A stretch of 64,000 nucleotides of DNA from Botryllus schlosseri (Eukaryota), in assembly GCA_051294905.1 (NCBI GenBank), contig CM119373.1, positions 2,668,001 through 2,732,000 of the forward strand, written 5' to 3'. Shown one piece after another: positions 5,231 through 62,892 of this stretch. The translations under genes and the position numbers were made by a program. Every line of letters starts with the position of its first letter. Within the stretch, counting starts at the first letter, position 1. Under the pieces are notes generated by a model that was not told where the DNA came from, did not search any database, and was given only the letters and a program-made list of their open reading frames with translations.

Positions 5231-5664
5231 ATTATTGCGTATTCAATAGCTCAAACAACAAGCACTTGGAATTGTTATGCAAATGAATTTAAAAAGTATA
5301 AAAGTAACTGTTGATACAAGCGGATTGCCTGGGTTTAGCGACAGAAAGGGTCATGCTCTTAGTACACTGTCTTTTGTAAAGTTTTGTGGTTGGAGAGACA
5401 CTTAGCCTGGGAAGTGCCATGCAGAGCAATATTTGTTACGAAACATTGAAGTTGATTGTATGACACAGTAGCACAAACAAATTATTGGAATTGACCGGCT
5501 TAGAAGAAGTAAGATAGCCAGCAAACAATGAAATGAGGACTAAAAATATAACCGATTGGAAGTATCACTGCAATGGATTACTAAAGTTGGATCCAAATAG
5601 AAGAGTACATAAATATATCACTTGGAAAAATATAATCAGCAATGAGAAAATATATACATATTTT

Positions 5665-6680
5665 GTACAGCACATCAAAATATACCTATTTATTTGACTC
5701 AACTATGTCAAAATTGCATACCTGTGTAGGAGTTCATGAAATATAGTGCTGAAGATAGCAAAAATATGTCCTTAGCCTAAAATTAAGAATTGATGCATAT
5801 TCGGTACAGCACATCAAAATATACCTATTTATTTGACTCAACTATATCAAAATTGCATACCTGTGTAGGAGTTCATGAAATATAGTGCTGAAGATAGCAA
5901 AAATATGTCCTTAGCCTAAAATTAAGAATTGATGCATATTCGGTACAGCACATCAAAATATACCTATTTATTTTACTCAACTATATCAATATTGCATACC
6001 TGTGTAGGAGTTCATGAAATATAGTGCTGAAGATAGCAAAAATATGTCCTTAGCCTAAAATTAAGAATTGATGCATATTCGGTACAGCACATCAAAATAT
6101 ACCTATTTATTTTACTCAACTATGTCAAAATTGCATACCTGTGTAGGAGTTCATGAAATATAGTGCTGAAGATAGCAAAAATATGTCATTAGCCTAAAAT
6201 TAAGAATTGATGCATATTCGGTACAGCACATCAAAATATACCTATTTATTTGACTCAACTATATCAAAATTGCATACCTGTGTAGGAGTTCATGAAATAT
6301 AGCGCTGAAGATAGCAAAAATATGTCCTTAGCCTAAAATTAAGAATTGATGCATATTCGGTACAGCACATCAAAATATACCTATTTATTTTACTCAACTA
6401 TGTCAAAATTGCATACCTGTGTAGGAGTTCATGAAATATAGTGCTGAAGATAGCAAAAATATGTCCTTAGCCTAAAATTAGGAATTGATGCATATTCGGT
6501 ACAGCACATCAAAATATACCTATTTATTTGACTCAACTATATCAAAATTGCATACCTGTGTAGGAGTTCATGAAATATAGTGCTGAAGATGGCAAAAATA
6601 TGTCCTTAGCCTAAAATTAAGAATTGATGCATATTCGGTACAGCACATCAAAATATCCCTATTTAATCGATCAAACTATC
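5665..6680. repeat. Tandem array, 139-bp unit, 7 full copies plus a partial copy
   Basis: GTACAGCACATCAAAATA recurs at 5665, 5804, 5943, 6082, 6221, 6360, 6499 and 6638. Units differ by only a few substitutions. Confidence 0.97.
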
Positions 6681-13919: not shown

Positions 13920-14220
13920 TGATGACTCATCAGCACACAGGATTCGGAAACAATTGAAAGGGTATGTCGGTGGTTGCCAACTAAAATTTTGCCAGATAAT
14001 TTATTATGTAACGATACCATGATCGTTTTCGGAAATCCTTTTGTTGACATAGCTGAATCATATATGTATATACTGTAAGGGTGATTATCTTACTCCGGAT
14101 AAAAGCATAATGAAGTATACACTATATTTTCGATAGCAAATAACCCATCATGAAGACCATAAAAAAAAACTGAAATTTCAACCGCTCCACATCGATCAAG
14201 AGCTACGATAGCACATGAGC
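13920..14220 (+). promoter_or_regulatory. Promoter and first part of non-coding exon 1 of peptide gene copy 1
   Basis: Aligns with 41235-41505. TGACTCA at 13923, GGAAATCC at 14031, GGATAA at 14097. The TATA position reads CATAAAA (14158) versus TATAAAA in copy 2. Confidence 0.6.
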
Positions 14221-16142
14221 CATAGGCGCCGAGTTACGGGGTGGCAGGGTGGCGCAGCCATCCCATGACACAATTATGGGGTGGCGACGACCCCATACAG
14301 AATGCTTGAACACCCGCCGTATGCGCTGTCCATTAGCTAGTCCGTGATATCGCGTAAATGACAACTATAAGCGCGCGAACTAGTGCTGAAAACGCCCCAA
14401 TAAATTGTAATCCGTGATTAGTAATCAATCATACAATCGAAGCGACCTCGTTTACGTCGATTTCGACAGCGCACGCGCTGAGAAACACTGTCTCCTCTCT
14501 CGACCAAATTCACGTTCTTCTTCCCTCAATCAAAATGTATTTACGCGCATGTTCGTTAAAAAAATAATTTTCGAGTTAGTTTTGTGAGTCTTTTTAATTG
14601 GAGCGCGAAATACGACAGTGTGTTTGTGTAATATGTATGCCTGCAAATTGAAAGTCATTGCTGCGCTAAGTGCGCACATTCATTACTCTAACAAGGTTTT
14701 GCTAAGTTTTATCGGGAAATGCAGCAATGCAGCGCAAACGTCGTTATAATGAGCAAACAATTGTCGCTATGTCAGACTCGAACGGAATTACTGATTAGTT
14801 GCGCGCTTTCTCGTTTGCTATCATCTGTAGGCTACTAATTCTTGTCTGCTTTATGCACTCGCATTCTCTCGATGTCACTTCTCAGTGTTTGATTTGTTAT
14901 TAATACTGCGCATTGTGCAATGCACGGTGTTGAATTACGTCGTCAAGTATTGATGCAACAAGAGATTCTCGTGGCGCAAATTGAGAATTTATTCGATTAG
15001 TTTGAGCGGGAACCAATAAACTTCATTGCTGGGCGGACTCTATTGGGCGCAACCTTATCGCGGATCGAATTTCAAACCATCAGGATTTGTATTTCTATTG
15101 ATAAGGTTGCGGCATGCGCCCATATTGCTTTTGCTGCAATAACACCTGGATAATTAAAATCGCAATATTTCACGATCAAATTCGACTGGCTGATCGGGAC
15201 CTACGTAGGCCCCGGGCTGAGAGTAACCAGCGCGTTGTTGGTATTAAACCCTAGGTGCGTAGCCAGTGAGTTTCTCGTTTAAAACTAGAAATCCCGTCTT
15301 TTTGAAATGCCAATTCACTAATTCGTATTATCGATGCTGCCTACTGCAAATTAGCGAGAATCATTTGTATGCAAAATGGGTCACTGACATCTGACGTGCG
15401 CTATCGTCTATCGTCTGATTTAACGCGTCCGCATGCAGGCCTGCACGCTATAATCGCTGGCATGAACTATCATGTGCACCAGGCTAGGCCTGATATCGTT
15501 ACCAGCCTGAAATATCGAGTCTGCAGCAGGACTGGCGCATGCCATAACTACGCTGGCCTAAATTATAGGGACTGCTTCAGGCCTCGCATGATATCCCTGC
15601 TATCTCTACTTATACGATTGTTATGTCATACTGGCTTAAGAGTGACTGCGCGGAATAAAATAACTTTGAATCTGCGCAATTGGCCACGAACGGACGTAAT
15701 TGATTAGCGCTAATACTAAAACATCAGAAGGTGTGTGTCAAGGCCGAGTTATCAAAAGATACGACAGGCCTGAATCACCTGAAATCGGTGCCGTTACAGA
15801 ACAGAGTTCACGGCAGACTTCATTCGTATTAATTTGTAAAATTGTTCGTCATCAGCGAGGTTCCGTATTCAATTGTTCGCGCGCGCGTATTGGTGAATTG
15901 TTGATGCTGGAGCGAGATCGAGGAATCGCTAATCAACCGCTGGACTCGCTGGCAAGCTTACCCGGACATATGCGCATTAATTCGTCAACACGATGAAGCT
16001 TGTCCTATCCATGTATTATGAGCATTTACGCATGTGCTTAACCGTGATAAATTAATGCTAGTTTGGTAAATTTGAAACAATTTGAAACCCCTCCTTTTTT
16101 TCATCTCGCCACCCCATTTGAAGATAAAAGACGGTGCCTATG
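14221..16142. mobile_element. 1.9-kb non-autonomous hAT-type element inserted in the 5' UTR exon of peptide gene copy 1
   Basis: TIRs CATAGGCGCCG / CGGTGCCTATG. Degenerate 8-bp TSD ACATGAGC (14213-14220) / ACTGGAGC (16143-16150). Absent at the paralogous site ~41503. Confidence 0.85.
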
Positions 16143-16159
16143 ACTGGAGCGATACCAAA

Positions 16160-16225
16160 GTAAGACTGGATTGCGAATTCCATACTCTTACATTGCCATA
16201 TTAACATTCATTACTTCGTCTGCAG
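16160..16225 (+). other. 66-nt intron 1 (5' UTR) of peptide gene copy 1
   Basis: AAA|GTAAGA ... TTCGTCTGCAG|ATTCAACATG. Same length and position as 41521-41586. Confidence 0.75.
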
Positions 16226-16232
16226 ATTCAAC

Positions 16233-16507
16233 ATGCAGCTGAGAACCACTCTGATACTTTTTGTCGTAATCGGGCTTGTCCTGCAAGGTGATGCCTGGTT
16301 CTGGGCCAGGCGCCGCCGCTATTATGCCTGAAGGAGGAGGTACGTCGCCAGGAGACGGCGTTACGACCAGGAACGTGGCTACTACGCATTGAAGAAGACG
16401 AATCGAAGGGATACTATGGAATGGATGATGATGAATCCAAAGGATACTATGACGAATCCAAGGGATACTACGATGGAGCTAAAGGGTACTACGAACAGGA
16501 AGAATAA
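16233..16507 (+). pseudogene. Secreted cationic peptide precursor, copy 1 (signal peptide + ARRRRY repeats + acidic ESKGYY repeats), with premature stop and frameshift
   Basis: MQLRTTLILFVVIGLVLQGDA|WFWARRRRYYA*RRRYVARRRRYDQERGYYA with TGA at 16329-16331. The -1 frame from 16391 reads EEDESKGYYGMDDDESKGYYDESKGYYDGAKGYYEQEE* (TAA 16505-16507). Missed by the ORF track because the open part is only 32 codons. Confidence 0.8.
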
Positions 16508-17055
16508 GTAAGTATAGTAGTTACTGATCCTCAGTTATGTAAATCTATCTGCGACTAGTGTATATATCCATATATTGCGACACGTACAACTCCTACAAAT
16601 TACATCTCAAACTTTAATACCGCTTGTGACATCCGATTCGCACTTACTCATACCACTTCTTTACTATTCGTTTGTACCATTTCATAGCTGTATCACATAT
16701 GCTTACCTTTATGTGCACATATTTTGTAGTATCATACGGTTTTAGTTCATTTTACTCTTATTTGCAATAACTCTAATAAGATCAATTTCAATTTTTGAGT
16801 CATGTGTGAAATTCTGACTTCGTATGGTTCGATTGCTACGCTTGATATCGTGTAAAGTGTTGAGGGATATTTTTTGCTGTTTCTAAGAGATTTCAGTTCA
16901 AAACAACCGTAATATGCTCAGTGCTCATATCCAATATGATGGGATTGTCATGGTGTTGTGGCTGTGAATTGTCATCGTCGAATTTCTTCCATCAGTAAAT
17001 CATAACTGGATTTGTTATTATTTTGTGCTATCCACCGATATTTTGTTATTTCAAG

Positions 17056-17100
17056 ATCCCGGCGTACAAAGGCCGAGGCAGAATAAAGAATTACACACAT
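17056..17100 (+). other. Putative 3' UTR exon 3 of peptide gene copy 1 with AATAAA
   Basis: Donor GTAAGT at 16508, directly after the acidic-frame stop. Acceptor TTTTGTTATTTCAAG ends at 17055. AATAAA at 17082-17087. Homologous to 44644 onward. Confidence 0.55.
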
Positions 17101-17799
17101 TTAAATTGAGTGTATGAATTTATTTCAAGCAGCTCAAATTGCGTCGATATTTATGCTCGCTGTAGGACTGGTTCAGGGTTGGGCAGGGACGTGCGGTGAG
17201 GGAAGGCAACTGAGGCAGTATATCATTTGTGTGTGGTTGAAGACTTTGCAACAATGTTATAAGACGATCACGACTCCACAGATATGTCATTTCCAGAAAC
17301 GTGCGTATACCTTTGAACTACATGTTTTGGATTCCGGACCAATCGGGGATTCAAGTGAAAAATAGTATTTAAACTGTAATTTTCGATGATAACTTGACTC
17401 TTGGTGCCAAGAAGCGGATACTTTCAATACTCGTTAAAATCATCTATCACTACTAGGGTTACCATATTTTGAAATCCTAAAAGAGGACAGTTTTCATAAA
17501 TTCTGAAAGCTCCAGGAATCCTGGTAATCTTGGAAAATTTTCGACCGATAGTGCTGTGTGGAATGAAAAAAGTCATGACTTTGGCTCGAATCCCGAATTA
17601 CACGCTTTTTTGCGATAGTGTGTGGTGTTGACTAAAAATTAAAAAGGTCGTCAATTTGACTCTACTCACGATTTACCCGATTGTTTGTTTGTTGTAATAG
17701 GTGATGGTTGACTACTATAGTCATTTACACCAGGCAGACATTCGTCATTTTTATTCCGTAGCAGCCGACATCTAGCACGGCTCAATTCCTGACTTTTTT

Positions 17800-24523: not shown

Positions 24524-25808
24524 CTACATGGCTCTCCATTGAGCATATAGTAGTTCTTTAGAGTCATATTCAGTCCCTAGAAACTAAATTATCACCGAAG
24601 TGCGGCCTGTTCTACAGCCTTGGGCGCTTCATGCCAGCATGGGTTCTTCTGATACTCTTTAAATCCTTAATCCAATCGAAGTTACATTATGGCATCCTCT
24701 GTTGGGGGGCTGCCAGTAAAACTGCACTCAAGCCACTGCAGAAACTACAGCATAAAGTACTCCGAATCATAGTTCTTTAGAACTACATGGCTCTCCATTG
24801 AGCATATAGTAGTTCTTTAGAGTCATATTCAGTCCCTAGAAACTAAATTATCACCGAAGTGCGGCCTGTCCTACAGCCTTGGGCGCTTCATGCCAGCATG
24901 GGTTCTTCTGATACTCTTTAAATCCTTAATCCAATCGAAGTTACATTATGGCATCCTCTGTTGGGGGGCTGCCAGTAAAACTGCACTCAAGCCACTGCAG
25001 AAACTACAGCGTAAAGTACTCCGAATCATAGTTCTTTAGAACTACATGGCTCTCCATTGAGCATATAGTAGTTCTTTAGAGTCATATTCAGTCCCTAGAA
25101 ACTAAATTATCACCGAAGTGCGGCCTGTCCTACAGCCTTGGGCGCTTCATGCCAGCATGGGTTCTTCTGATACTCTTTAAATCCTTAATCCAATCGAAGT
25201 TACATTATGGCATCCTCTGTTGGGGGGCTGCCAGTAAAACTGCACTCAAGCCACTGCAGAAACTACAGCATAAAGTACTCCGAATCATAGTTCTTTAGAA
25301 CTACATGGCTCTCCATTGAGCATATAGTAGTTCTTTAGAGTCATATTCAGTCCCTAGAAACTAAATTATCACCGAAGTGCGGCCTGTCCTACAGCCTTGG
25401 GCGCTTCATGCCAGCATGGGTTCTTCTGATACTCTTTAAATCCTTAATCCAATCGAAGTTACATTATGGCATCCTCTGTTGGGGGGCTGCCAGTAAAACT
25501 GCACTCAAGCCACTGCAGAAACTACAGCGTAAAGTACTCCGAATCATAGTTCTTTAGAACTACATGGCTCTCCATTGAGCATATAGTAGTTCTTTAGAGT
25601 CATATTCAGTCCCTAGAAACTAAATTATCACCGAAGTGCGGCCTGTCCTACAGCCTTGGGCGCTTCATGCCAGCATGGGTTCTTCTGATACTCTTTAAAT
25701 CCTTAATCCAATCGAAGTTACATTATGGCATCCTCTGTTGGGGGGCTGCCAGTAAAACTGCACTCAAGCCACTGCAGAAACTACAACATAAAGTACTCCG
25801 AATCATAG
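24524..25808 (+). repeat. Tandem array, 259-bp unit x5, made of flank plus the 5' end of a truncated LINE
   Basis: CTACATGGCTCTCC recurs at 24524, 24783, 25042, 25301 and 25560. The fifth unit runs on into the rest of the LINE. Confidence 0.97.
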
Positions 25809-26437
25809 CTAGGGCCCCAAAGGGGCATGGCTGCCCATCTAATAAGTCGCTGCTGAAGAGATTCGGCGTCCTAAACATAGAAGATATGCGGAAACTAGAA
25901 ATCGCCAAGTTTATGTATCAGTTTCACTGCGGTCGTTGCCCCAAATATTTCAATGACTCCTTTACCTCTGAATCAAAAGCGCACAAGTACAACACACGCG
26001 CGTCCACGTCGTCCAAATATCATATGATCGACCGAAAAGATCATCGCTCTATCAAATATGCCGGACCTGATGTGTGGAACAGTATCCCGCCGGCCATCCG
26101 ACAGTCGACGAGCATGTCCACATTCAAGTCGAAATACAAACAATTACTACTAAATAAATACAGTCCATCCTCAAGATTACCGGACCACGACTGACCTATC
26201 GATCTCGCTTCCCATGACATGCCGCCCTATTTGTTGTCGCTTTCTTTTTCTATACTATCTTCTTTACTTTCATTTAGTGTGCATGCCTCCTCTTTACATC
26301 GCCTAGGCCAATGTGGGTGTCAGATTCCATAGACTACTCCTTGTCGCTTCGACATCTTCCTGTCTTTTCATTGTATCGCATTTTTTGTGGTGTATTGAAC
26401 TGATAAAATTGCTAATAAACCAATGATGATGATGATT
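25598..26437 (+). mobile_element. 5'-truncated CR1/L2-clade LINE (C-terminus of ORF2, 3' UTR, (ATG)n tail)
   Basis: Frame open 25598-26194: SHIQSLETKLS...SLIQSKLHYGILCWG...LQKLQHKVLRII...FMY...HKYNTR...SIKYAGPDVWNSIP...FKSKYK, typical of the post-RT region of CR1/L2 ORF2. Ends AATAAACCAATGATGATGATGAT. Confidence 0.9.
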
Positions 26438-32002: not shown

Positions 32003-34501
32003 CCAGACATGGCGTGATCACTTCATGAATGTGATCGATCGCGATTACGATGACTTCTTAATGACGCGATTATGATTACAGCAAAATCTCGAAGTAGTCG
32101 ATTACGATCACGATTACAATGAAAAGGTAATCATGATTACTCACGAATATATTCATTTTGCTCCTTAGAACTTAAGCCTTCAACGCATATTGGAAGACAA
32201 TATAACGATTGCGCTGAAATAGCCTCCATAGATAATTTCCATTTTAAGGGGACGACATTGGATTGTTACGTCACAATACATCAGTTATCCAACTTGATCG
32301 TGGACGATTTCTTGCCCCAACGATTTACATTATAGGTGCAACCCACGCTAACAAGATATACAAGCTGATGGCTGATGCGGCAATTGCGAAATAACGATTG
32401 GTGCCTGTTTCAAGTATGGCAATATGAGAAAAAGTGAACATAACATACTGCCATAATAAATCATGTTCGTCGTAGCTGAACAACATACGTATGCCTATTG
32501 CCGATAATCTACTTAATACAGTTATTGCGAGTTGCCCAAGCGAGTGACGTCAACGAACACCTCGGTTATGATTTATATCAGAAGTAGATGATTTTATCGC
32601 TTAGATGTGGAGACGTCATATTTCATTTGACGAGTACAAAATAGCAAATCTTTACGCGGTGTTGATACTCCTCTCCAAGCAGAAACGTCCACACTGCGCT
32701 TAACTAAGAATTATGGTACCAAATATCAAGAACTCCGTTACCATTTGAAGCTAGGCAGAGTGTTGGTGACCACAATCCTCCTGCGAGGTAGTGGTGTCTG
32801 GTATAACCTGAATAGCGGCATGGCAGTGCACGGTTCTTTAAATCAGTGGTTCTTAATCTCTTTGACCTCGCGGACTCGTGACTCGTAAAAAAATTCCCCG
32901 TTAATTAAATTACGAGAAATTCATGCAAATTATATGCAATATTGAAAATTACATTTGATTAATATTTAAACCAAATATTTATACGTGTTTTTTTTTGAAG
33001 TCTCTGCTAAGCGAAACTCGCGAAATCCTGTTACCGACCACTAACCAGATTTTCATTGTTCGGTATTATGCGACTTGGATTTTAATATCGGCTTTATTAT
33101 ACTGACAACAATCGCTAGATTGCAATGTCGTAATTCATCGAAGCTTGTTTAAGAGTATGCGTAGTTTTCATATATAACTTGTCCGAAACGAGTTTCAGGT
33201 TACTTTTAAAACATTTCTTATAGCACTTGCATCATTGCGACGAGCGTTCTATAAGTAGCCTACACCATGAACTCTCTGATTCGATACAGTACAAAACTAT
33301 GTTTCTCATTTCTACTAATATGTTTTATTTATCTTATTCAGTGCTCTTCAACCTGTATGAAAGTTCGCACTTGTGCGAATGAGAAAAATCGCAGTGCGAA
33401 TGGTGCGAATGAAAAAATCGGATGAGTGCGAATGAAAATCGTGAATAATAATTGTTAATTTTTCTGACGCGAAATAATTCAAATAAACTTAACTGGAAAT
33501 TCAAAGGCAGTGTAACTTTTGTAGTTGAGAGGCAATTGTAAAAACTTGTTTAACTTACGACGCATCACCAATTCACAAGCCGTAGTGAATAATTATTTTT
33601 GCACTATAATTATTACCAAAGGCCTAGTTTGGAAGCTGGTGTAGTAGCAGACATACAGTATATCAGTCTGTCTGAGCCTACGACTGGCTCGAATAATGAC
33701 GGCAAATTGACTTTCAGCTTTCTTTCGCTGAGCAATCATCATATTTTGTAATAACGGATCGATTAGCGCGAGGCATGAGGATAGCAGAAAATACCATGGT
33801 TACAGACTCACATTTGAAAGTTACTGTAACGCAAATTTTTGCCACTTCGAGATTTAGTAAAGTATGACCGGCAAAGGGTATAATTTTGGGTCGACACGGT
33901 GCCAGAGCTACCTGTTAATATGTATGTAATATTTGTTGCATTTTTTCTGCGATTGGTTTTTCATATCCAAGGTAAGACCACGATTTGGGTCATTACAGCC
34001 CTGCTAAAGTGATCGATTCAAATTTAAAAGTAAAACCAATATGGCACAGTATGACGTAGCTTTTGAATCTGTTTGAATCCTGTTAGTGCAGGGGTTCCCA
34101 ACCTGGGGTCCATCGACCCCCTGGTGGTCCGCGAGAATGCATTTGAGGGTCTGTGATTACCTTGCTTAATTTTCAGAAGAACAAAAAGCGATAGCGAACT
34201 TTTTACATTCATTTCACTCTTTAAATGCACATGTGCCAAGCTCAAGCACGGTACAATAAACTATACCGGTATGCATTAGGATAAATTGATGCTGCTTACT
34301 ACCAGAGGTGGTCAAAGTAGTCAAGAAAGCTACTCAAGTAGAAGTAGAAGTAGCGACGAAAAAATCTACTCAAGTACGACTAGAAGTACTTCATCCATAA
34401 GCCACCTAAAACTACTTGAAGTAGAAGTAGAGTTGACTGACTTTAAATCTACTCAAGTAAGTAAGTAGTTTTGAAAACAGTCTTAATTCGTTCGCACGGA
34501 C

Positions 34502-35833
34502 GATATGTTCGATAGAAGCGTCGTGCAACGAGATGCCAATACACATAAGACACCAGTTTCTTTGTTTGAAATACCGATATGAAACTTTAACTAAGTCGAA
34601 CCACCCAAACTCTGAATTACTCCAGACAACGTGGGAAGACACATACTGCCTATTGAGAAACAGATATTGTACGTTCAACTTCTTAACAAGATCGAACCCA
34701 CTCGACGACCAGTGCATTCGCGGCAAGGAACTCGTTCGAGCAGCGCCTTGGACAATCGGTGATTTACAGGTTGATTTGTCATTATCACGAATTATCAATC
34801 GTCACTCATTTCGATACATTGTGAACGTAGCCTATACTGAACTAATGGGCGCATACCCAATCCATTTACATGTTTTCACAGACGGATCGAAGACCACGGA
34901 TGCCACAGGTTATGCGATATTCGTTAAAGATCGGAATATAACAATATCCCACAAATGCCAAGGAGCTCTGTCGTCATTCACAGTAGAATCATATGCCATA
35001 TTAGCCGCTCTTCATTGGATCGAAACGAATAACGTTAGCCAAGCTGCTGTTCTCAGCGATTGCCTTAGTGCACTGGACTGTATAGCTAATTATCGAACAG
35101 ATGGGCCTTTTATCGTTAATCAAATCGTTAATGTTCTCAACAGGTTGATGAGTGAAGGAAAATTAATCACGCTCATATGGATTCCGGGCCACGCAGTAAT
35201 TCCCGGAAATGAAGTAGCCGATCGTCTGGCCAAGGAGGCGACATCATCACACCGTGCCACCACAATTCATGACATCCCTATAGACGATGCAAAGAAAATC
35301 GTTTTACATAAATGCAAAGCTATTTGGAACCAGGAATATCTCGATTCAGAAACAGGAAGCCATTACAAAATCTTCCGACCAAATCTGGAGGTGAAATTAC
35401 CATCAGTCCCACCAAGACACAGCGAAGCTACGTTGTTTCGACTACGCACCGGTCACTGCGGACTCAATGCACATCTCCACCACATTGGTTGCTCGGAATC
35501 CCCATTGTGCGAGCATTGCGGCGAATTAGAAACGGTCGAACACTTTATTATGACCTGCTCACATCTGACTGAGATAAGAAGAAAGCTACAACGTATCGCG
35601 CAGACAAAAAACGTACCGTTCCAGCTATATAACCTTTTAACGGACAGCAACATTATCGCCGATATACTCATGGACTTCATACGAGAGTCAAAGCGTCGCA
35701 TTTAGCCACGTACTCATTTTGTATTTTCATGACATTTCTTGCTATTCATTTTGATCAAAATGTCTAAATCGCCGTGGTGCAAAAAGCCTTCGATGCGAAA
35801 AGCACCACTAAATGTTTTTATACATAATAAAAA
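34502..35833 (+). mobile_element. 5'-truncated RNase H-containing non-LTR retrotransposon (I-group LINE)
   Basis: 12-bp TSD GTTCGCACGGAC at 34490-34501 and 35834-35845. Ends in AATAAAAA. Confidence 0.9.
34533..35705 (+). CDS. LINE ORF2 C-terminal fragment: RNase HI domain plus CCHC zinc knuckle
   Basis: RNase H motifs FTDGSK, VESYAI, LSDCLSAL, WIPGH and GNEVADRLAK, then RLRTGH and CEHCGELETVEHFIMTC. No RT domain (5' truncation). Probably not independently expressed. Confidence 0.88.
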   Translation: MPIHIRHQFLCLKYRYETLTKSNHPNSELLQTTWEDTYCLLRNRYCTFNFLTRSNPLDDQCIRGKELVRAAPWTIGDLQVDLSLSRIINRHSFRYIVNVAYTELMGAYPIHLHVFTDGSKTTDATGYAIFVKDRNITISHKCQGALSSFTVESYAILAALHWIETNNVSQAAVLSDCLSALDCIANYRTDGPFIVNQIVNVLNRLMSEGKLITLIWIPGHAVIPGNEVADRLAKEATSSHRATTIHDIPIDDAKKIVLHKCKAIWNQEYLDSETGSHYKIFRPNLEVKLPSVPPRHSEATLFRLRTGHCGLNAHLHHIGCSESPLCEHCGELETVEHFIMTCSHLTEIRRKLQRIAQTKNVPFQLYNLLTDSNIIADILMDFIRESKRRI

Positions 35834-41234: not shown

Positions 41235-41460
41235 CATGACTCAGTCATCAGGCATCAGCATACATGATTCAGAAACAACCGGAAGCCTGCCAACTAGAAT
41301 TTTGCCAGATTTATTATTAGCTAACGATGCCATGATTGTTTTCGGAAATCCTTTTGTTGACAAAACTTCATTCTATATATGCATACAGTAGAAAGAATTA
41401 CACCGGATAACATTATATTTGCGATAAAAAATAATCCATCATGATGACTATAAAAGAGAC
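41235..41460 (+). promoter_or_regulatory. Promoter of peptide gene copy 2 (TATA box; AP-1, kB-like and GATA motifs)
   Basis: TGACTCA at 41237, GGAAATCC at 41344, GGATAA at 41405, TATAAAA at 41449-41455. The first three are conserved with copy 1. Confidence 0.6.
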
Positions 41461-41520
41461 TCGACATATTAACCGCTCCACATAGATCAAAAGCTACGCT
41501 AGCACTGCAACGATACCAAA

Positions 41521-41586: not shown

Positions 41587-41593
41587 ATTCAAC

Positions 41594-41869
41594 ATGCAGA
41601 TGAGAACCACTCTCGTACTTCTTGTCGTAACCGGGCTTGTCCTGCAGGGTGATGGCTGGTTTTTCAGGTGGAATTGGCGCCGCCACCCCGGCAGAAGGAG
41701 GTCCGTATCCAGAACGGGTGGGGGTAGTGATTCGAAGCCTAAACCTAGAATAGAGAAGACTAATCGAAGGGATACTATGATGAATCCAAGAGATTCTACG
41801 TTATGGAAGACGAAGTCAAGTGATGCTACGACGAATCAGGAGCTAAAGGTTACTACGAAGAATGAGTAA
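41594..41869 (+). CDS. Secreted cationic (antimicrobial-like) peptide precursor, copy 2
   Basis: MQMRTTLVLLVVTGLVLQGDG|WFFRWNWRRHPGRRRSVSR... Hydrophobic signal peptide followed by a W/R-rich region. 91 aa unspliced. If GTAAGT at 41866 is spliced to 44644, the end becomes ...KNESRRRKSDKE* (TGA 44672-44674). Confidence 0.7.
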   Translation: MQMRTTLVLLVVTGLVLQGDGWFFRWNWRRHPGRRRSVSRTGGGSDSKPKPRIEKTNRRDTMMNPRDSTLWKTKSSDATTNQELKVTTKNE

Positions 41870-42389
41870 GTGTAGAAGTTACTGATGCTCAGTTAGGTAC
41901 AATTTATCTGCAACTAGCATATCTATATTCGCGACACGTATAACATCTAAATTACATATCAAACGTTGATACCGATGGCGACATCCGATTCGCACTTATG
42001 CATATCACTTCTTCACCATTCGTTTAGATTACATCATATCTTCCTCACGTAAGGTTACCGTTATGTGCAGATGTGCACATATTTAGTAGTATCATTGTTT
42101 TAGTTAATTTTACTCTTAATATATTTGTAATTACTCTAATAGGATTACTCATGAGTAACCTGCTCACTTCGCACGGCTCGATATCCATGCTTGATGTCAT
42201 CTAGTGTGTTGAGGTATCGCATATATTATTCCTAAGTAATTTCAATTTAAACCATCCGTAATATGCTCAGTGCTAACATTTTTATGGTTGGATTGACACT
42301 CTTGATGCTGTGGTTGTGGATTGTACTTCGTCGATTTTCCTCCACCATTTAAATCACAATTGGGTTTAATATTATTTTGTGCTATCCAC

Positions 42390-46334: not shown

Positions 46335-49300
46335 CACTGTAAAAAATCTGGTAGATTTACTGGGAAATCTCCGTAAATTTTGCAACGAATTACCGGTAGC
46401 TGCCAATAACTGTGCGTAGCTTGTAATTTTACATTTTGATATGTAATATTACCTCAAGTTAGCTCTAAAGTCAAGTTACCAGAATTTCTTCGCAAAATTA
46501 CAGACAGTTACTCGTTTCTGAAGTTTACCAGGCTATTGGCAAAATTGATTAGCTTGAAAATCTCTGCAGCCAATGTATACGTGGAACTGAATGTTACTGA
46601 TATCATTCTCGTGGTGATTTGACCTGATTCAACCTCGTTCGCGAGACTGGGGTCTGTCATACGGAAATTGTTGGCCCTAGTACCAATTTCAGTATAGTAC
46701 ATAGTATAGGCTTACCATATTTCGGAAATGAAAAAAGAGGACACTTTTTCAGAAATTTCAGACAAGCAAAACTGGAGAAGAATTCTAAAAAAACAGGTAA
46801 ATTTTACCCGCTTCATGATCGGATGACTAAAAAAAAAAAAAAGGTCATCACTTCCGCTCAGAGCTCAAAAACACGTTTTTCACTCCACATTGCCAGGTGG
46901 ATGACTGAAAAAAAAAAAAAAAAAAAAAAAAAGGTCTTTTTTCAGAGCTGAATTCACCCCTTTTCCCTCCGAAATACCCGCCGGAGCTTCACTTCTGCGC
47001 TAATTTGCGGCATATCACTCGCGATTTCCTCTAAATATGACCTAAATTTTCAAAATAGAGGACAAAATCTCAAAAAAGAGGACAAAAGGGCGTCCTCCGA
47101 GGACACTTTCAAAAAAGTCAAAAAAGAGGACAAATCCTCTTAAAAGAGGACGTATGGTAAGCCTAACATAGTAGGGTAAAAGAAACAACTGACAATCGTA
47201 GATATATAGCCACTATATTATAATATAAGGCTGTGGCTATCGGCCGGTCTCGCTGGTTACATTCGTTGTCACGGATAGGACTGATGAGTTGGAATATCAG
47301 TTTAGGATGTATAATATTGTTCGGGAAACTAGAAATATCAGCGCCGCATGCTAAGTTGACCAGTTGCTAATGGCGAACAAGGCGACCGCGACCTGTAATA
47401 GCTTACATTAGGTTACCGTTACGCGTTACTGATTTTCCTGAGATTCGTAGTAAACAACCAATGCATCACTGTGACATCACAAGCAGCGTCTGGTTACGTC
47501 AATACGGTAAGTAGTGACATCACATGGAATAAATATCAATTTATACGCAATTAGATGGGAAAGAAAGGGACTAGATGTAATGATAAATGTTTCTGTAAAA
47601 AAACGACTTAAATCAAACATTATAACGCAGTGGCCAGTAAATATTATTGGTGGCATGTTAGCGGATGAATACCACTTATTTTGAAATCGTTAGAGTGGCG
47701 TATCGTCGTCTGGCCATTGTAGAGATTTGATCAAAGGTGGAGCGAAGCTTGTGCTTGAAGAAAGTGGACACGATCGTTGAATGCTGATTGGGATACGCAT
47801 CGTAAAAGGTACAGTGCTACATAGTATTCGTTACCTTGAATATCTACGACTGTGCACACCACCGGGATAACTTTGATTTCATGATTGAAATATTTCATTC
47901 GCCGCATTCTCTGTTCTATTTTGGGATGTTAGTCGACCTATATACTGACCTGTGACACCACATACTCTGCCGCGGAGTAGTTGAAACTGTTGGTATGTTT
48001 ATGTCATTTTGAGCCATAGCATAGACATGTTTCCATCCACTGCTAGATTTGTTTGGTACGCATGCCACCTCAAATGAGGAACCTTTTGCTTCAATACATA
48101 AGATCAGTGGTTCTCAACCTGGGGAACGCGAGAAATTGACAAAGTCTGTATGAATTCTGACTAAACATGTGTTTCACAACCATTTTCAGAAGACGATTGT
48201 TGAAGATGAAACTTATTTCGTATTCAAGAAAGCTCGCCAAATTCAAACTCCAGCAGTCGCGCTCAACTTCATTTAAGCAAATTTGTGATATTCTTTGAAG
48301 ATTTAGAGGAATTCCCACGTGTAAGTCATTCATTACTTCATAGCTTTGGCAGTAGCCTAAAGCTCTTTGCGCTGGATAGCTGTTGTTAATAGCTGGCGAA
48401 CTGCACTGCGTAAGACAGACTTCGATGCAATATAGGTTGCTCGGTTTCGCCCTCAATTAAGCTACCCTATATCAACACAATTTGATTCAATTCAATTCCA
48501 AAACTGATCAAATTGGGCATGGCAGTACAGAACGACGCCTTGTTCTCTGTAGACACTACCAGCATTAGGGTTAGTCTCAGTGCAACCTACCTTGAAACAA
48601 ATTGATGTCCTGTCCAATGTTTTTTTGCTATTTTCAAACAAGTTTGGGGAAATTTGTCAAAAATGTTAAAGACTGGAATACGGCGTAATTCAATGGCGTA
48701 AGACATAAGATCAGGGATAGGCAACCTGCTGCCGTAGATGGGAATTTGTGCGGCCGCCAACACCTAATTCAATTAGTATGTGTTAGCATCCGTCGACATG
48801 CAAATTGAAATTACTAATTCACTCCCGATTTTTTTAGAGATTTTAATTATTCTTGAAATTTTCTTCGCGCTCCACGCAATTCAACATAACTTAATTTTTC
48901 GATTTTAATATAGTAGCGCCCTTCTAAATCTGACCAGGAATTAGAATCGTGTGCTCCTCACGAAAGAATTTTTTTATGGTACATTTGGGCGATTTCAATA
49001 TATTTCCACTACCGATACGCTGGACAATCCTGATCGGGGGTCAAGAAATAACAGCATGCAATAAAGTGCATGGTGAAGTAGGTCATGAATCTCTACTATA
49101 TCATGTAAAAGGCGGAGCCGTCACCACACAATGTATCAGTACCGGGACTTCAAAAATTGTTATATTTTTGTTCCCTCTTTGTCTTAGTAGTCTTTATAAT
49201 GTCATGTCTAGGTTAGGAACTTTGCTTATTATAGTGACTTCCGCATGAATTCTTTTTAGTGGAGCTGCAAGATACTCTACACAGAAGGGATGAGGGCGAG

Positions 49301-53402: not shown

Positions 53403-53989
53403 ACGGATGATTTTGCACAATGCAAAACGTGACTGATATCCTGCCGTGAACAGTGAACATATCGCACGATATTAAAATCCTTACGTCTCAGCGAAGCACT
53501 GTCCAAATATTTGCAACCGCCACTGACAGCCGAATCTAATCAGCTCGACAGCGCTCGACAGGCTGCTGAATTCTTTACATCGCTTGTTACGGTCGAAAAA
53601 TGAATTTGGAGGGGCTGTGTTATCTATAGTCCCATCACAGTTCGTCCAGCGTTATACAGAAACAAGGCGGGAATATTCTGGAGCACTATGATTGGAGTTG
53701 ACGAGTACTCGAATCTGAATCAAGTAATATTTTTAATGATTCGTGTCGAGTATTGAAATATGATATATTCGATTACAGAAACGATACGATCCTTGATAAT
53801 TTTACAGCGTTAATTATAGTTTTTATAATTTTTTGCGCAACTACCATTGAACGTGCTGGAAACGATGTGTGCCTAGCTATCCTGTGTTTAGTGGTGGTGT
53901 GTTCATGCTAACTCGTGCAGAGCTCGAAATTAATACCAGCCATCCATGAATTCTCACTCAGCTTTAGCTCAAAAAATATTTTATTGCAA

Positions 53990-55225
53990 CGAAGCATTTC
54001 ACAAACTGGGACAGAATTACAATCCTAGCGAAACAGTTGTTTTCACAAATTAGATTCTAATTAGAGCAAAGAAAATTTTCAAAAATTGGGATAGAATTAC
54101 AATCTTAGCAACACAGTTGTGTTCACAAATTAGATTCTAATTAGAGCAAAGAAACATATCACAAATTGGTGCAGAATCAGAATTATAGCAACACAGTTGC
54201 AACCACAAATTAGATTCTAATTAGAGCAAAGGAACACTTCAAAAATTGGGATAGAATTACAATACTAGCAACACAGTTGTTTTCACAAATTAGATTCTGA
54301 TTAGAGCAAAGAAGCATTTCACAAATTGGGATAGAATTACAATCCTAGCGAAACAGTTGTGTTCACAAATTAGATTCTAATTAGAGCAGTTTTCACAAAT
54401 AAAATTTAATTAGAGCAAAGAAGCATTTCAAAAATTGGTATAGAATTAGAATTATAGCGACACAGTTGATTTCACAAATTAGATTCTAATTAGAGCAAAG
54501 AAACATTTCACAAATTGGTGTAGAATTAGAATTATAGCAACACAGTTGCAACCACAAATTACATTTGAATCAGAGCAAGGAAACATTTCAGAAATTGGGA
54601 TAGAATTAGAATCTTAGCGACACAGTTGCTTTCACAAATTAGAGCAAAGAAACATTCCACAAATTAGGGTAGAGTTACAATCCTAGCGACACAGTTGTTT
54701 TCACAAATTAGATTCTAATTAGAGCAAAGAAACATTTCAAAAATTGGTGTAGAATTAGAATTATAGCGACACGGTTGCTATCACAAATTAGATTTGAATC
54801 AGAGCAAATAAAGATTTTACAAATTGGAGCAAAATTAGAATTATATAGTTACAGTTGTTTTCAAAAATTATATTGGAATTAGAATAATTACTACAGTATT
54901 TTTTCCGAATTAGAGTAGAATCCGAATTATAGCTAGTTTTTATTTTAAAATTAGAGTCGAATTAGAATTACAGCCACAGTTGTTTTCTAAATTAGATTCG
55001 ATTGAGAGCAAAGAAACATTTCATAAGTTAGAGTATCACCAGAATTATAGTAGCACAGTTCTTTTTACAAATTATAGTGGAATTGGATCGATAGCTACAC
55101 TGTTTTTCCAAATTAGAGTACAATTAGAATTTTGGGTTCAGTTGTTTTCACAAATTAGATTCGAATGAGAGAGACGAAGCACTTCAAAATTTAGATTACA
55201 ATAAGAATTTTAGCTACACAGTTTT
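53990..55225. repeat. Degenerate minisatellite, 80-bp unit built from two ~40-bp subunits
   Basis: TTAGAGCAAA at 54061, 54141, 54221 and 54301 (period 80). The core TTTCACAAATT recurs about every 40 bp. Confidence 0.9.
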
Positions 55226-56036
55226 TCACTAATTAGACAGATAGACCACAACAAGATTGTGTAGTTGTCCAAGTCAGCAAACGATATCAAAATCATCACT
55301 TGGATTTCTGAAATCTGCTCATAAAACAGAGAAGCTTGTTTGATTGAAACCCGAAATTTTTGTCTCCAATCAGGACATACTGTAAAAATGACAGTATCTG
55401 GAAAACTTTTGGATATGCGAGGTCCCAAACATAATAACACGCGAGAAGATCAAGTACTATCTCAAATAGTTCCGCTTTAGTGTGAGAAGATCCCTCTATG
55501 CGGATGCCATTCGCAACGATCCATGACTGCAGGTCACCATTTTCATGGTGCGCTAGTACGAGATGTGGGGGACTCAGCTTTGTGGATGTTAATTCGACGG
55601 AATGGGCCTGGAATTAAACAAGATATGTTAATTAAAATTATATTGCCAATAATCCATGTGTGAAAGCACAAGATTTAGATTAGGTATAGAAATGCTTTTA
55701 TGGGACTTCTCCATAATGAATATGTAATAAAAATACAGCTGAAGGGTCAACATAGTTTAACAAGCTCAACTCATGGAAACAAGTGATCACAAATTCTGTC
55801 GTCACGGTATGCTATCTAATCGTTGACATCTATGGGTTCTTCCACGTAATCAGATATCTTATGTAAATGAGTACTTGAACATATGAAGTCCTGATTACTG
55901 TCGATGGTAAACCATAAACTAGTAAATTTACTAAGATTTAATGATCCATTCAGATTTGATCAGTATACCATCATACAGATACCTTTTGGAACGGCAAAAG
56001 TAGTATGTTCACATTCACTTATTCTATGCTCTATAT

Positions 56037-60478: not shown

Positions 60479-62611
60479 TCATGCACTTCTGGCCGATAAA
60501 ATATGTTCACAATCAGAATTTGAAATGTGGTTTTCAATCTCTGGTACGTCAGCTCTGGGAATTTCAGAGGTTTCATAAAGACTTATAATCGGTTCCAAAT
60601 AATTAGTCTTCTTTTCCCCTTTTTTGTCAATCATTTGAATACACATCCAACGTTGATGATAATAGCTCAAACTCAGGGCTAAATTTTTGAAATTATACCA
60701 TCTTTTTGATTTAAAAAAGCCATTCTTTGCTTCGAATCTCATTGCCCATTGCATCCGCAAGGGCCCAAACTGCCTCATTTGTTCTGGGAAGTGGACCAGA
60801 TAGTGTAGTTTGGGAGTGAATGGCAAATCAGGGTACAGGCGTATGATTTCTACATTATGAACAGCAATCAGATATTTGAGATCAACGTAAGTTTCCTCAG
60901 ACACTACAGTAGATAATGAGAGCTGAAGTATTTGAAGTAACCTTAGCAAATTCAACCAATGATCATTCATTTCAGAAATATCTGGCCCAATAATGAAAGG
61001 CAGAGCTTGAAGCAATACAAGCATATTAGAAGCAGTTTGCGGAAAATTCGCAGTTGGTTGCAAGTGTTTTCTCTCTATCATTTGAGGTCGATCTTTACGG
61101 TCAGACTTACTATACTCAAAGTTCCGAAGCTGGCTGTTCAGTCGAGCAAGTGTCAATGTGCCATCTTCAATTTCATGTACTAAAAATGCCTTCAACTCCA
61201 TTTTCACTATCCCCTCAAGCAATATGTGCATTGCATCATGGACCATACATTTGGTCACATCAAAATAAGGTATTTCTGATAAGAAAGTTCTCTCATTAAC
61301 ATCAAGTTCACGAGACATTGCGATTCGGTTTTGAGCACTCTCACATTGTTCAAGAGCCTGCAAACTATTTTCATGTTGGCTTTTGTTTCGAATTGGGCAC
61401 TGCTCATGTGTATAATAAATCGAGAGATCTTGTTTAGCAACATTGCATGTGCGACATGGCTTAAAAGCTCCTCCAACACCTTCTTTGAAGTCAGCTAGTA
61501 GTTGAGCAGCCGGGGTGTCGCCAACACAAAACAGAAGGTAGCCATGTACTATTTTTTTTATACCTTTCACTGTGAGAGTAACATCTTTTGACATTTGCTG
61601 CATCGCGTCACAAAAATCCTTCAAAAGCGCATTACGACCAGAAAAGTCTTTCAAATCAATAGATTTTGCAATGCACAAGAGCTGGATACTATCAAGTTCA
61701 CTACGGCATTCCGGTGGAATGTTCAGAAGGGACCAGTAAAATGCAGACATTTTATGCTTTTTGCGATAAGCTCCGATAGGATTCACTATTTCAAATTCAT
61801 CATGATAAAGTGCAAACATGAGGCTATCAGCATTTTTAGTAATCCCTGCATGCGATTCGACATATTTTCCTTGTGTAACATCATTCATTATGCCATTGGC
61901 ACATAGCGTATTTGCCAATGGCTTGGTAATACTATTCAATAACGCTTCAAGCTGCTTCAGGAATGGAACAAAATAACCCAAGGCAGGTTTTTCAATCAAC
62001 TTATACATTCCACAGGTAAATTCATTTGAGAACCGCATTCCTAAGACGATTTCTTCCTGATCGACTAGGCCAAAATGTTCTCGATAGAATTTGTTTCTTC
62101 CTGCTTTAGATTTCAATACTTCAGGTATCAATCCCTGTTCTCTCAAGTGTTGGGATGTACAAGTGCTGCTATTGGTACTGATTGTTCTACCTACAAGAGG
62201 AAAACAATTAGCACTGTTATTTGACTGGATAATATCTTCGAGTCCGGCATCACTCAATTTATGTAATGTCTGAAGTCGCAGGAATAAAGCTGCTGTTGGT
62301 AAAATCGAAGTTATTTTAGAACAAGGGCCATTGTTTGATTCCTCAGCATTTCCATTTTCACCATTGGAAGCAGGTAACATATCATAGTCAGGAGGAGTAT
62401 ATGCTTCACAGTGGAACAAGTCCGATTTCTTCACATTTTTATGTCTCCTTCTACAATGCCTACAGAGGTCCACATATTTTGGAAAAATTATGCCACAAAT
62501 CCTGCATGATATGACCAGACTCGGATGTTGCGTATGGCGCCGCAATAAGTGTGAAGAGAGCGAATCAGCAGACCCAACAAAGGGGCACAACCAACACGCT
62601 TTATTGGACAT
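60479..62611 (-). CDS. EnSpm/CACTA (CMC)-superfamily transposase with two N-terminal C2H2 zinc fingers, probably C-terminally truncated
   Basis: 710-aa open frame with CWLC..HLLRRH and CRIC..HCRRRH fingers. Motifs HDEFEIVNPIG, HKMSAFY, NIPPECRS, GDTPAA, CRTC, HDAMHILLEG, KLHYLVH, FGPL..W.MRFEAK and NFKN are typical of animal EnSpm-like transposases. Confidence 0.85.
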   Translation of the reverse strand: MSNKACWLCPFVGSADSLSSHLLRRHTQHPSLVISCRICGIIFPKYVDLCRHCRRRHKNVKKSDLFHCEAYTPPDYDMLPASNGENGNAEESNNGPCSKITSILPTAALFLRLQTLHKLSDAGLEDIIQSNNSANCFPLVGRTISTNSSTCTSQHLREQGLIPEVLKSKAGRNKFYREHFGLVDQEEIVLGMRFSNEFTCGMYKLIEKPALGYFVPFLKQLEALLNSITKPLANTLCANGIMNDVTQGKYVESHAGITKNADSLMFALYHDEFEIVNPIGAYRKKHKMSAFYWSLLNIPPECRSELDSIQLLCIAKSIDLKDFSGRNALLKDFCDAMQQMSKDVTLTVKGIKKIVHGYLLFCVGDTPAAQLLADFKEGVGGAFKPCRTCNVAKQDLSIYYTHEQCPIRNKSQHENSLQALEQCESAQNRIAMSRELDVNERTFLSEIPYFDVTKCMVHDAMHILLEGIVKMELKAFLVHEIEDGTLTLARLNSQLRNFEYSKSDRKDRPQMIERKHLQPTANFPQTASNMLVLLQALPFIIGPDISEMNDHWLNLLRLLQILQLSLSTVVSEETYVDLKYLIAVHNVEIIRLYPDLPFTPKLHYLVHFPEQMRQFGPLRMQWAMRFEAKNGFFKSKRWYNFKNLALSLSYYHQRWMCIQMIDKKGEKKTNYLEPIISLYETSEIPRADVPEIENHISNSDCEHILSARSA

Positions 62612-62892
62612 AAAATAGCGAAAATGTCATATAATTGGATAAATGAGTGAGTAACCTGTAAAGCAAGATGCACATAACTTAGTCAAGAATTATAGTTAGA
62701 TCACTAGGCATAAATCACAATTCCACCAACTTAGAGGATTAACTGATATTATGAAACTCAGTTTTGATACTACTGCAGCTTGGTGTAAAAGGCACTCTAC
62801 TTATACTTCTCTCACTGCTTCTTGCTATTATAAGAACCCTCTTAACCACATAATCATAACATATCACATGTTGATATCCTTAAACGAATTAC

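Follow-up and report, generated by a model that had tools for sequence, protein, structure and literature searches.

The window (the whole 64,000-nucleotide stretch of Botryllus schlosseri DNA analysed here) carries two copies of a gene family whose members encode a predicted signal peptide, a cationic head and an acidic tail of repeated K/R-GYY cassettes. The better preserved copy occupies positions 16233 to 16507, and its non-coding parts extend on both sides of the reading frame. The features of the two copies, in window coordinates, are:

13928..14220, forward strand: promoter region together with the upstream portion of non-coding exon 1, separated from the gene by an insertion (aligns to the upstream regions of paralogs)
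14221..16142, no strand assigned: dispersed repeat of 1,922 bp inserted in exon 1 (inverted repeats, multi-copy in the genome)
16143..16159, forward strand: 3' remnant of non-coding exon 1 (paralog alignment; the exon is read-supported on paralog L004)
16160..16225, forward strand: 5'UTR intron of 66 nt, GT..AG (homologous to a spliced 70-nt intron of L004)
16233..16295, forward strand: predicted signal peptide of 21 residues ending in G-D-A (sequence and hydropathy; conserved in paralogs and relatives)
16296..16364, forward strand: cationic head, in which WFW precedes three Arg runs that end on YY, YV and Y (sequence and paralog alignment)
16329..16331, forward strand: premature stop TGA (AGA is aligned in L002, L003 and window 41587)
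16365..16507, forward strand: acidic tail carrying the five K/R-GYY cassettes, with one nucleotide deleted near 16387-16390 and the stop at 16505-16507 (sequence and alignment)
16508..17055, forward strand: 3'UTR intron directly after the stop, with donor GTAAGT and the acceptor placed by homology (the homologous L004 intron is spliced)
17056..17114, forward strand: last (3'UTR) exon, a diverged remnant (71% identity with exon 3 of L004 across 79 nt, E 0.001)
41594..41870, forward strand: second family copy (L006), more decayed, frameshifted and with stops in the cassette frame, its start approximate (72% over 939 nt to 16143-17035)

The ATG (16233), TGA (16329-16331) and TAA (16505-16507) of the first copy all lie where the preliminary description had placed them. 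Up to about 16390, frame 1 encodes a signal-like hydrophobic stretch (Kyte-Doolittle peak of 3.56 over 11 residues), WFW, three Arg runs with YY, YV and YD after them, and one GYY unit, R-GYY. The remaining four units, K-GYY in acidic spacers, are read in a second frame (16391-16507), giving five GYY in total, each preceded by K or R. The claim that one stop and a single-nucleotide deletion hide a continuous frame of signal, WFW, Arg/Tyr runs and five K/R-GYY units agrees with these coordinates and with an alignment to five paralogs. In this alignment the codon opposite the TGA is AGA in L002, L003 and the in-window paralog at 41587 and falls in a gap of the Arg repeat in the other two, and the one-base gap of the window copy comes directly after the first GYY. 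One detail of the earlier translation has to be amended, namely the 'A(x)' before EEDESK at the frameshift, where the paralogs have G-M or D-M. The earlier reading had also overlooked a further lesion, the 1,922-bp element in exon 1.

The likeness of the window copy to its paralogs ends at 16143 and picks up again at 13928-14214. The detached upstream region (13928..14220) is 70.7% identical over 287 nt to window 41253-41505 and 92.5% identical over 40 nt to L004. A separate copy of the L004 promoter region, 90% identical, lies at G000:C3:2651652-2651935, and no coding part was found alongside it. The element that separates the two parts of the gene (14221-16142) has 11-bp terminal inverted repeats with one mismatch, 8-bp flanks alike at six of eight positions, and no long open reading frame. 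Its candidate copies number 2,306 genome-wide, and among 40 that were scored the best full-length copy is 92% identical. The element is likely a non-autonomous DNA transposon, which we take to be of the hAT type. Judged against the intact paralogs, the stop, the frameshift and the exon 1 insertion make the window copy, with high confidence, a presumed pseudogene. Its loss looks recent, since splice sites and cassettes are still recognizable and identity to L002 and L003 across the coding part stands at about 90-92% (141/154 and 139/154). The same likeness, together with splice sites and four cassettes that are still intact, would favor a functional copy whose lesions are assembly errors or belong to one allele, or one that makes a short 11-residue head product ending at the stop. 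However, three independent lesions, including a multi-copy 1.9-kb element with 36 ATGs on the forward strand ahead of the gene start, render this highly improbable, as does the broken or truncated state of six other loci of the 16 in the family, which birth-and-death turnover predicts. The window copy itself adds little beyond evidence of such fast turnover.

Elsewhere in the window, a 715-aa open reading frame on the reverse strand (60482-62626) matches Plavaka transposase (E 1.8e-7), a forward-strand segment (34461-35705) is retroelement-like with an RNase H/RT match, and another forward-strand segment (25598-26194) is LINE-like by eye, with no Pfam match. Tandem arrays occupy 5654-6679 (period of ~139 bp), 24524-25808 (~259 bp) and 53970-55237 (~80 bp). 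An Arg run with a Tyr motif at 47711 was rejected as a further family member and attributed to chance, having neither a signal stretch nor a family DNA match.

A DNA search of the same genome with the window copy returned 27 matches (best non-self E 6.9e-97), which, with 464 kb around them, resolve to 16 loci: eight on contig C3, six on C14 and two on C2. Intact frames of 70-187 aa are present at nine of the 16 loci, and the other seven, both window copies among them, are broken or truncated. Thus the intact homologs with an in-frame KGYY tail that the preliminary description had called for do exist in this genome. One of the nine, L020, has a changed 5'UTR splice acceptor. The gene structure of the family (L004:1888-2432; window 16505-16513) comprises a 3'UTR intron at, or a few bases from, the stop and, immediately ahead of the ATG, a short intron in the 5'UTR. 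The decayed copies L006 (window 41594-41870) and L009 have a different head (FFRWNW, Arg run), and L009 has no start codon. A genome-wide search for a tandem K-G-Y-Y codon pattern gave 73 matches, 72 of which fall inside family genes on C3 and C14, the single match on C6 being out of frame; the reversed control gave none. The 27 DNA matches at 16 loci and the near-confinement of the pattern to family genes imply that the observation made in the window is not due to chance.

More distant relatives with the same signal and Arg/Tyr head were revealed on contig C4 by a protein search. These genes (L085, L088-L091, L094, L096 and L098) have Arg/Tyr- or Arg/His-rich heads and short, multi-exon acidic tails, and no reading frame in the scanned 130 kb of C4 contains K/R-GYY. 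They are candidate antimicrobial peptide genes. Since the C4 relatives lack GYY, the cassette tail has been added within what is a broader group of cationic-head peptide genes. Beyond this genome, relatives with a cassette tail were found neither among 358 candidates drawn from 5.8 billion proteins with L004 as the query nor among 7,999 scored proteins with L007. An alignment query gave ten matches, all head-only or unrelated; a full HMMER scan gave 11, comprising five head relatives (Logan/ENA contigs) and six others, five of which were inspected and represent unrelated repeats; and the ESM Atlas returned no usable match for either query protein. These negative searches of proteins, HMMER profiles and the ESM Atlas do not prove that the cassette tail is absent outside this genome. 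In three relatives known from contigs (P0009, P0014 and P0015), WY is placed after an Arg run. Within the freely accessible literature covered, no paper was found for the cassette or head motifs, and none of those listed on tunichrome or RiPP biosynthesis describes such a precursor. The accessible parts of a single-cell atlas paper (PMC13635237), including four supplementary files, contain neither the family motifs nor marker identifiers. The precursor family is apparently undescribed.

The family is strongly transcribed, spliced and polyadenylated, as seen on paralog L004. A search across sequencing runs listed no carrier recorded as RNA, and it is raw reads that establish the expression. In two raw single-cell RNA runs of one study, 6,189 and 2,956 of 22.2 million records each match L004 with at least 92% likeness, and 3,988 and 1,687 with at least 99%, counts that include reads of paralogs. 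The reads come from one strand only. A template-switch oligo marks the transcript start at 1470, poly(A) follows 2516, and both introns are spliced with GT..AG borders (1511-1580, 54 and 28 reads; 1891-2431, 802 and 357 reads). Reads that extend into further cassettes (113 and 122 in the two runs) and loose read ends at the post-stop donor of a C14-type gene (394 and 167) indicate that the long C14-type forms are also transcribed. Trp-Tyr units are confined to one gene of C14, L011, which has nine K-WY cassettes and all eight matches to the WY pattern. The WY block of L011 has zero depth in both runs, and near-identical reads (at least 99%) number only two of 609 and five of 303; the gene is therefore silent, rare or different in the sampled animals, and the WY branch has no expression support.

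The tails of the nine intact genes contain 3-19 K/R-GYY cassettes and were split at every K or R, with no selection on motif. Of the 103 tail K/R sites, 89 precede GYY, nine precede WY, one each precedes LFY, SYY and SNY, and two precede spacer. The K/R-GYY-D/G/E register is maintained while the codons of the cassettes vary synonymously, with Lys encoded by AAG in 40 cases and AAA in 38, and Gly by all four of its codons. After the exclusion of 11 of the 103 units (nine WY and two coreless) and the counting of identical units once (92 reduced to 66), pN/pS over the 66 distinct units was 0.016 at D-3, 0.11 at K/R, 0.11 at G, 0.045 and 0 at the two Y, and 0.51 and 0.66 at two spacer columns; these ratios are descriptive only, with no formal test, because the units are tandem copies and not independent, and some pS values exceed 1. 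Variation across the cassettes is thus biased toward synonymous change.

The reading that we favor, and to which we give an even chance, is that the intact members are multi-core ribosomal precursors of excised, oxidized Tyr-Tyr metabolites of the tunichrome or botryllamide kind. In the proposed pathway the signal would first be removed and the precursor packaged in blood-cell granules. Cleavage of furin type within the Arg runs, and of the tail at its single basic sites, would then yield G-Y-Y-D-x-x-K pieces, and furin has been reported in morula-cell granules (PMC9966394, accessible sections). Removal of the D-x-x-K spacer would leave GYY or YY, the Tyr residues would be hydroxylated or brominated, and the last Tyr would be oxidatively decarboxylated to an enamide. 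With the Gly kept, the result would be the backbone of tunichrome Mm-1; with the Gly lost and deamination, that of the botryllamides. Such products would act as phenoloxidase substrates and in chemical defense. As a multi-core RiPP system would have it, the family provides a transcribed, ribosomally made precursor in which a core recurs between conserved flanks. With regard to products of the host, YY corresponds to the botryllamide backbone known from B. schlosseri, provided that the additional Gly is removed; GYY corresponds to Mm-1, which was not found reported from Botryllus in the accessible parts of the sources. The preliminary proposal of a polyprotein releasing GYY tripeptides is partly supported by the intact homologs and the expression of the family, but has to be moved from the window copy, which is very probably dead, to its intact paralogs; the host is an ascidian, a lineage with Tyr/DOPA chemistry, as that proposal presupposed.

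It is possible, though rather doubtful, that the tail instead remains uncut, as a Tyr-rich polypeptide hydroxylated to DOPA in place, whose role in granules, extracellular traps or the tunic would be to supply phenoloxidase with substrate in bulk, to bind metal or to form cross-links. Lys adjoining DOPA is typical of adhesive proteins, Tyr makes up 21-26% of the tail in the DQER-type genes, and tails lengthen through neutral Tyr-pair units; the titles of published work also name DOPA polypeptides of ascidian blood cells. Moreover, the core has no closing basic site on its C-terminal side, so its release needs a cut before D/G/E or trimming, and there is no obvious enzyme for a cut after the last Tyr, which counts against excised cores. 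Yet the strict D-x-x-K/R-G-Y-Y order, in which a basic residue invariably adjoins the core on its N-terminal side and persists in units whose core has become WY, LFY or SYY, makes the tail look like a processing register and not a mere composition.

According to a further explanation, which we consider unlikely, what the gene delivers is an antimicrobial peptide, the Arg/Trp/Tyr-rich head, with the tail only neutralizing it during storage and the GYY repeats incidental products of slippage. The layout resembles that of styelin and botryllin, head-only relatives exist in this genome and elsewhere, and head charges of +5 to +11 are set against tail charges of -6 to -17 in the nine intact genes. 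However, the C4 relatives neutralize the same head without GYY, the core residues G, Y and Y seldom change at the amino-acid level although their codons have spread synonymously, and long tails bring no added net charge. Across the nine genes, tail length correlates with Tyr count (rho 0.99) and with net charge (rho -0.78, p 0.014), the latter counting against the favored reading. The six genes with a +8 head have tail charges of -10 to -17 and 13 to 38 Tyr, and the tails of L004 (63 aa, 14 Tyr) and L010 (147 aa, 38 Tyr) have the same net charge of -14; longer tails mainly gain charge-neutral Tyr-pair units. Under any reading of the tail, the Arg-rich head may be antimicrobial.

Sulfotransferases prefer a Tyr that directly follows an acidic residue and has few basic ones in its vicinity. 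That the units are Tyr-sulfated signaling peptides of a neuropeptide-type multi-copy precursor would suit the multi-copy layout, the single basic sites and the acidic spacers (94 of 192 tail Tyr have at least three acidic residues within five positions), but is very improbable given that position -1 is acidic for none of the 192, a basic residue lies within five positions of all 192, the units lack an amidation-plus-basic ending, and the family sits among cationic peptide genes of blood-cell type. Both alternatives named in the preliminary description, a neutralizing tail and Tyr sulfation, have therefore lost ground to the C4 tails without GYY, the charge data and the poor sulfation context.

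Linkage of tailoring enzymes to precursor genes is not expected in animals. In favor of the proposed pathway, the genome has many tyrosinase matches (22); these and the 2OG-Fe(II) matches lie away from the family clusters. Against it, no tailoring enzyme turned up near the three clusters when 140 of the 1,782 open frames in 464 kb were scanned, a scan that short exons would escape. An enzyme cluster beside the genes was rejected, the scan having given only a short-chain dehydrogenase (SDR), two Bcl-2 genes, a kinase, F5/8, GH18, zinc-finger pieces and mobile elements. The short-chain dehydrogenase gene (L030:5607-6260, reverse strand) lies ~17 kb from the first family copy on C3, and the two Bcl-2-family genes (L053:2869-3423, forward strand, and L054:3-524, reverse strand) are near-identical, in opposite orientation and inside the C14 cluster.

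Building on the favored multi-core reading, a wider claim can be put forward tentatively: the family might supply the missing ribosomal precursors of the dehydro-Tyr/DOPA molecules of ascidians, as an animal multi-core RiPP system in which K-GYY would lead to Mm-1-type compounds and botryllamides and K-WY to quinoline enamides (perspicamide and botryllamide H). If true, a cassette rule would predict the tunichrome of each ascidian from its genome, and the closest invertebrate relatives of vertebrates would have an animal-encoded route to small-molecule RiPPs. Against the favored reading, the distribution of the botryllamides fits a free-amino-acid, microbial or non-ribosomal route, as they also occur in the distant ascidian Aplidium altarium, and their acyl half recurs in a different compound type of Atriolum robustum (PMC5315671, accessible parts). 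The family is a good and testable candidate for an old biosynthetic question, the origin of tunichromes and dehydrotyrosine compounds, which the available text of two reviews leaves open (PMC3039461, PMC10880069). Botryllamides have drawn study for their inhibition of ABCG2, and in Botryllus both cytotoxicity and allorejection are driven by substrates of phenoloxidase. An abundant candidate precursor amenable to knock-down in a laboratory model makes the question of origin directly testable, with exact masses to seek.

Among known systems, the pre-propeptides of styelin, clavanin and botryllin (PMC9966394, PMC10608444, in the parts consulted) share the layout of a signal, a cationic piece and an acidic C-terminal piece, the signal being hydropathy-based in the present family. 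The modifications of styelin named in the preliminary description are confirmed in the literature, styelins carrying DOPA, dihydroxy-Arg/Lys and bromo-Trp. The family head, about 15 residues rich in Arg, Tyr and Trp, is unlike the helical peptides of 23-37 residues in styelin, clavanin and botryllin. Botryllin comes from the same host. A 19-base botryllin primer (PMC9966394) has one exact match in the genome, at locus L028 on contig C11, which encodes pieces of the published botryllin epitopes, one of them with two differences; by this evidence the host is B. schlosseri or a close relative. In this gene, W-G and five Arg stand right after the signal, upstream of the first epitope of the published mature peptide, and resemble the family head. 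The family is nevertheless not botryllin, as contig and sequence differ, KHK is absent and no K/R-GYY was found in the botryllin exons. Homology to known peptides was tested with Pfam, where no match reached E<0.01 (the best, E 0.027, being unrelated), and with the KHK motif, which is absent from all heads of the nine intact genes; the family is therefore not assigned to styelin or botryllin. A search of the genome with the clavanin model gave no match, and its control was equally silent.

On the side of chemistry, perspicamides and botryllamide H are quinolinecarboxylic acid derivatives from a botryllid, reported from other species. They would fit the Trp-Tyr core of the nine K-WY units, which are confined to L011 in a block without reads. 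Such quinolines are presumed Trp/kynurenine products in ascidians (PMC13268815, accessible parts). In plant cyclopeptide-alkaloid RiPPs, the C-terminal Tyr of a ribosomal precursor is oxidatively decarboxylated to a hydroxystyrylamine (PMC12871766, in the text available), the same end group as proposed for the present family; the plant systems differ by a BURP cyclase and macrocycles, and the likeness is one of chemistry only, homology not being implied. Tunichromes (Mm-1, Mm-2) and botryllamides are, in the available parts of the sources, compounds without known genes (PMC3039461, PMC5315671, PMC6264260, PMC4413197). A 2010 review left a ribosomal or non-ribosomal origin of tunichromes open (PMC3039461), a 2023 review lists them under unidentified pathways (PMC10880069), and reviews regard them as substrates of phenoloxidase that probably derive, as fragments, from DOPA proteins (PMC5465252), each as far as the accessible sections go. 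Mm-1, given in the preliminary description as Gly followed by two DOPA-derived residues, is indeed Gly-DeDopa-DeDopamine, and the GYY of the cassettes is its unmodified backbone, while a Tyr-Tyr origin is stated for the B. schlosseri botryllamides (PMC3039461, accessible sections).
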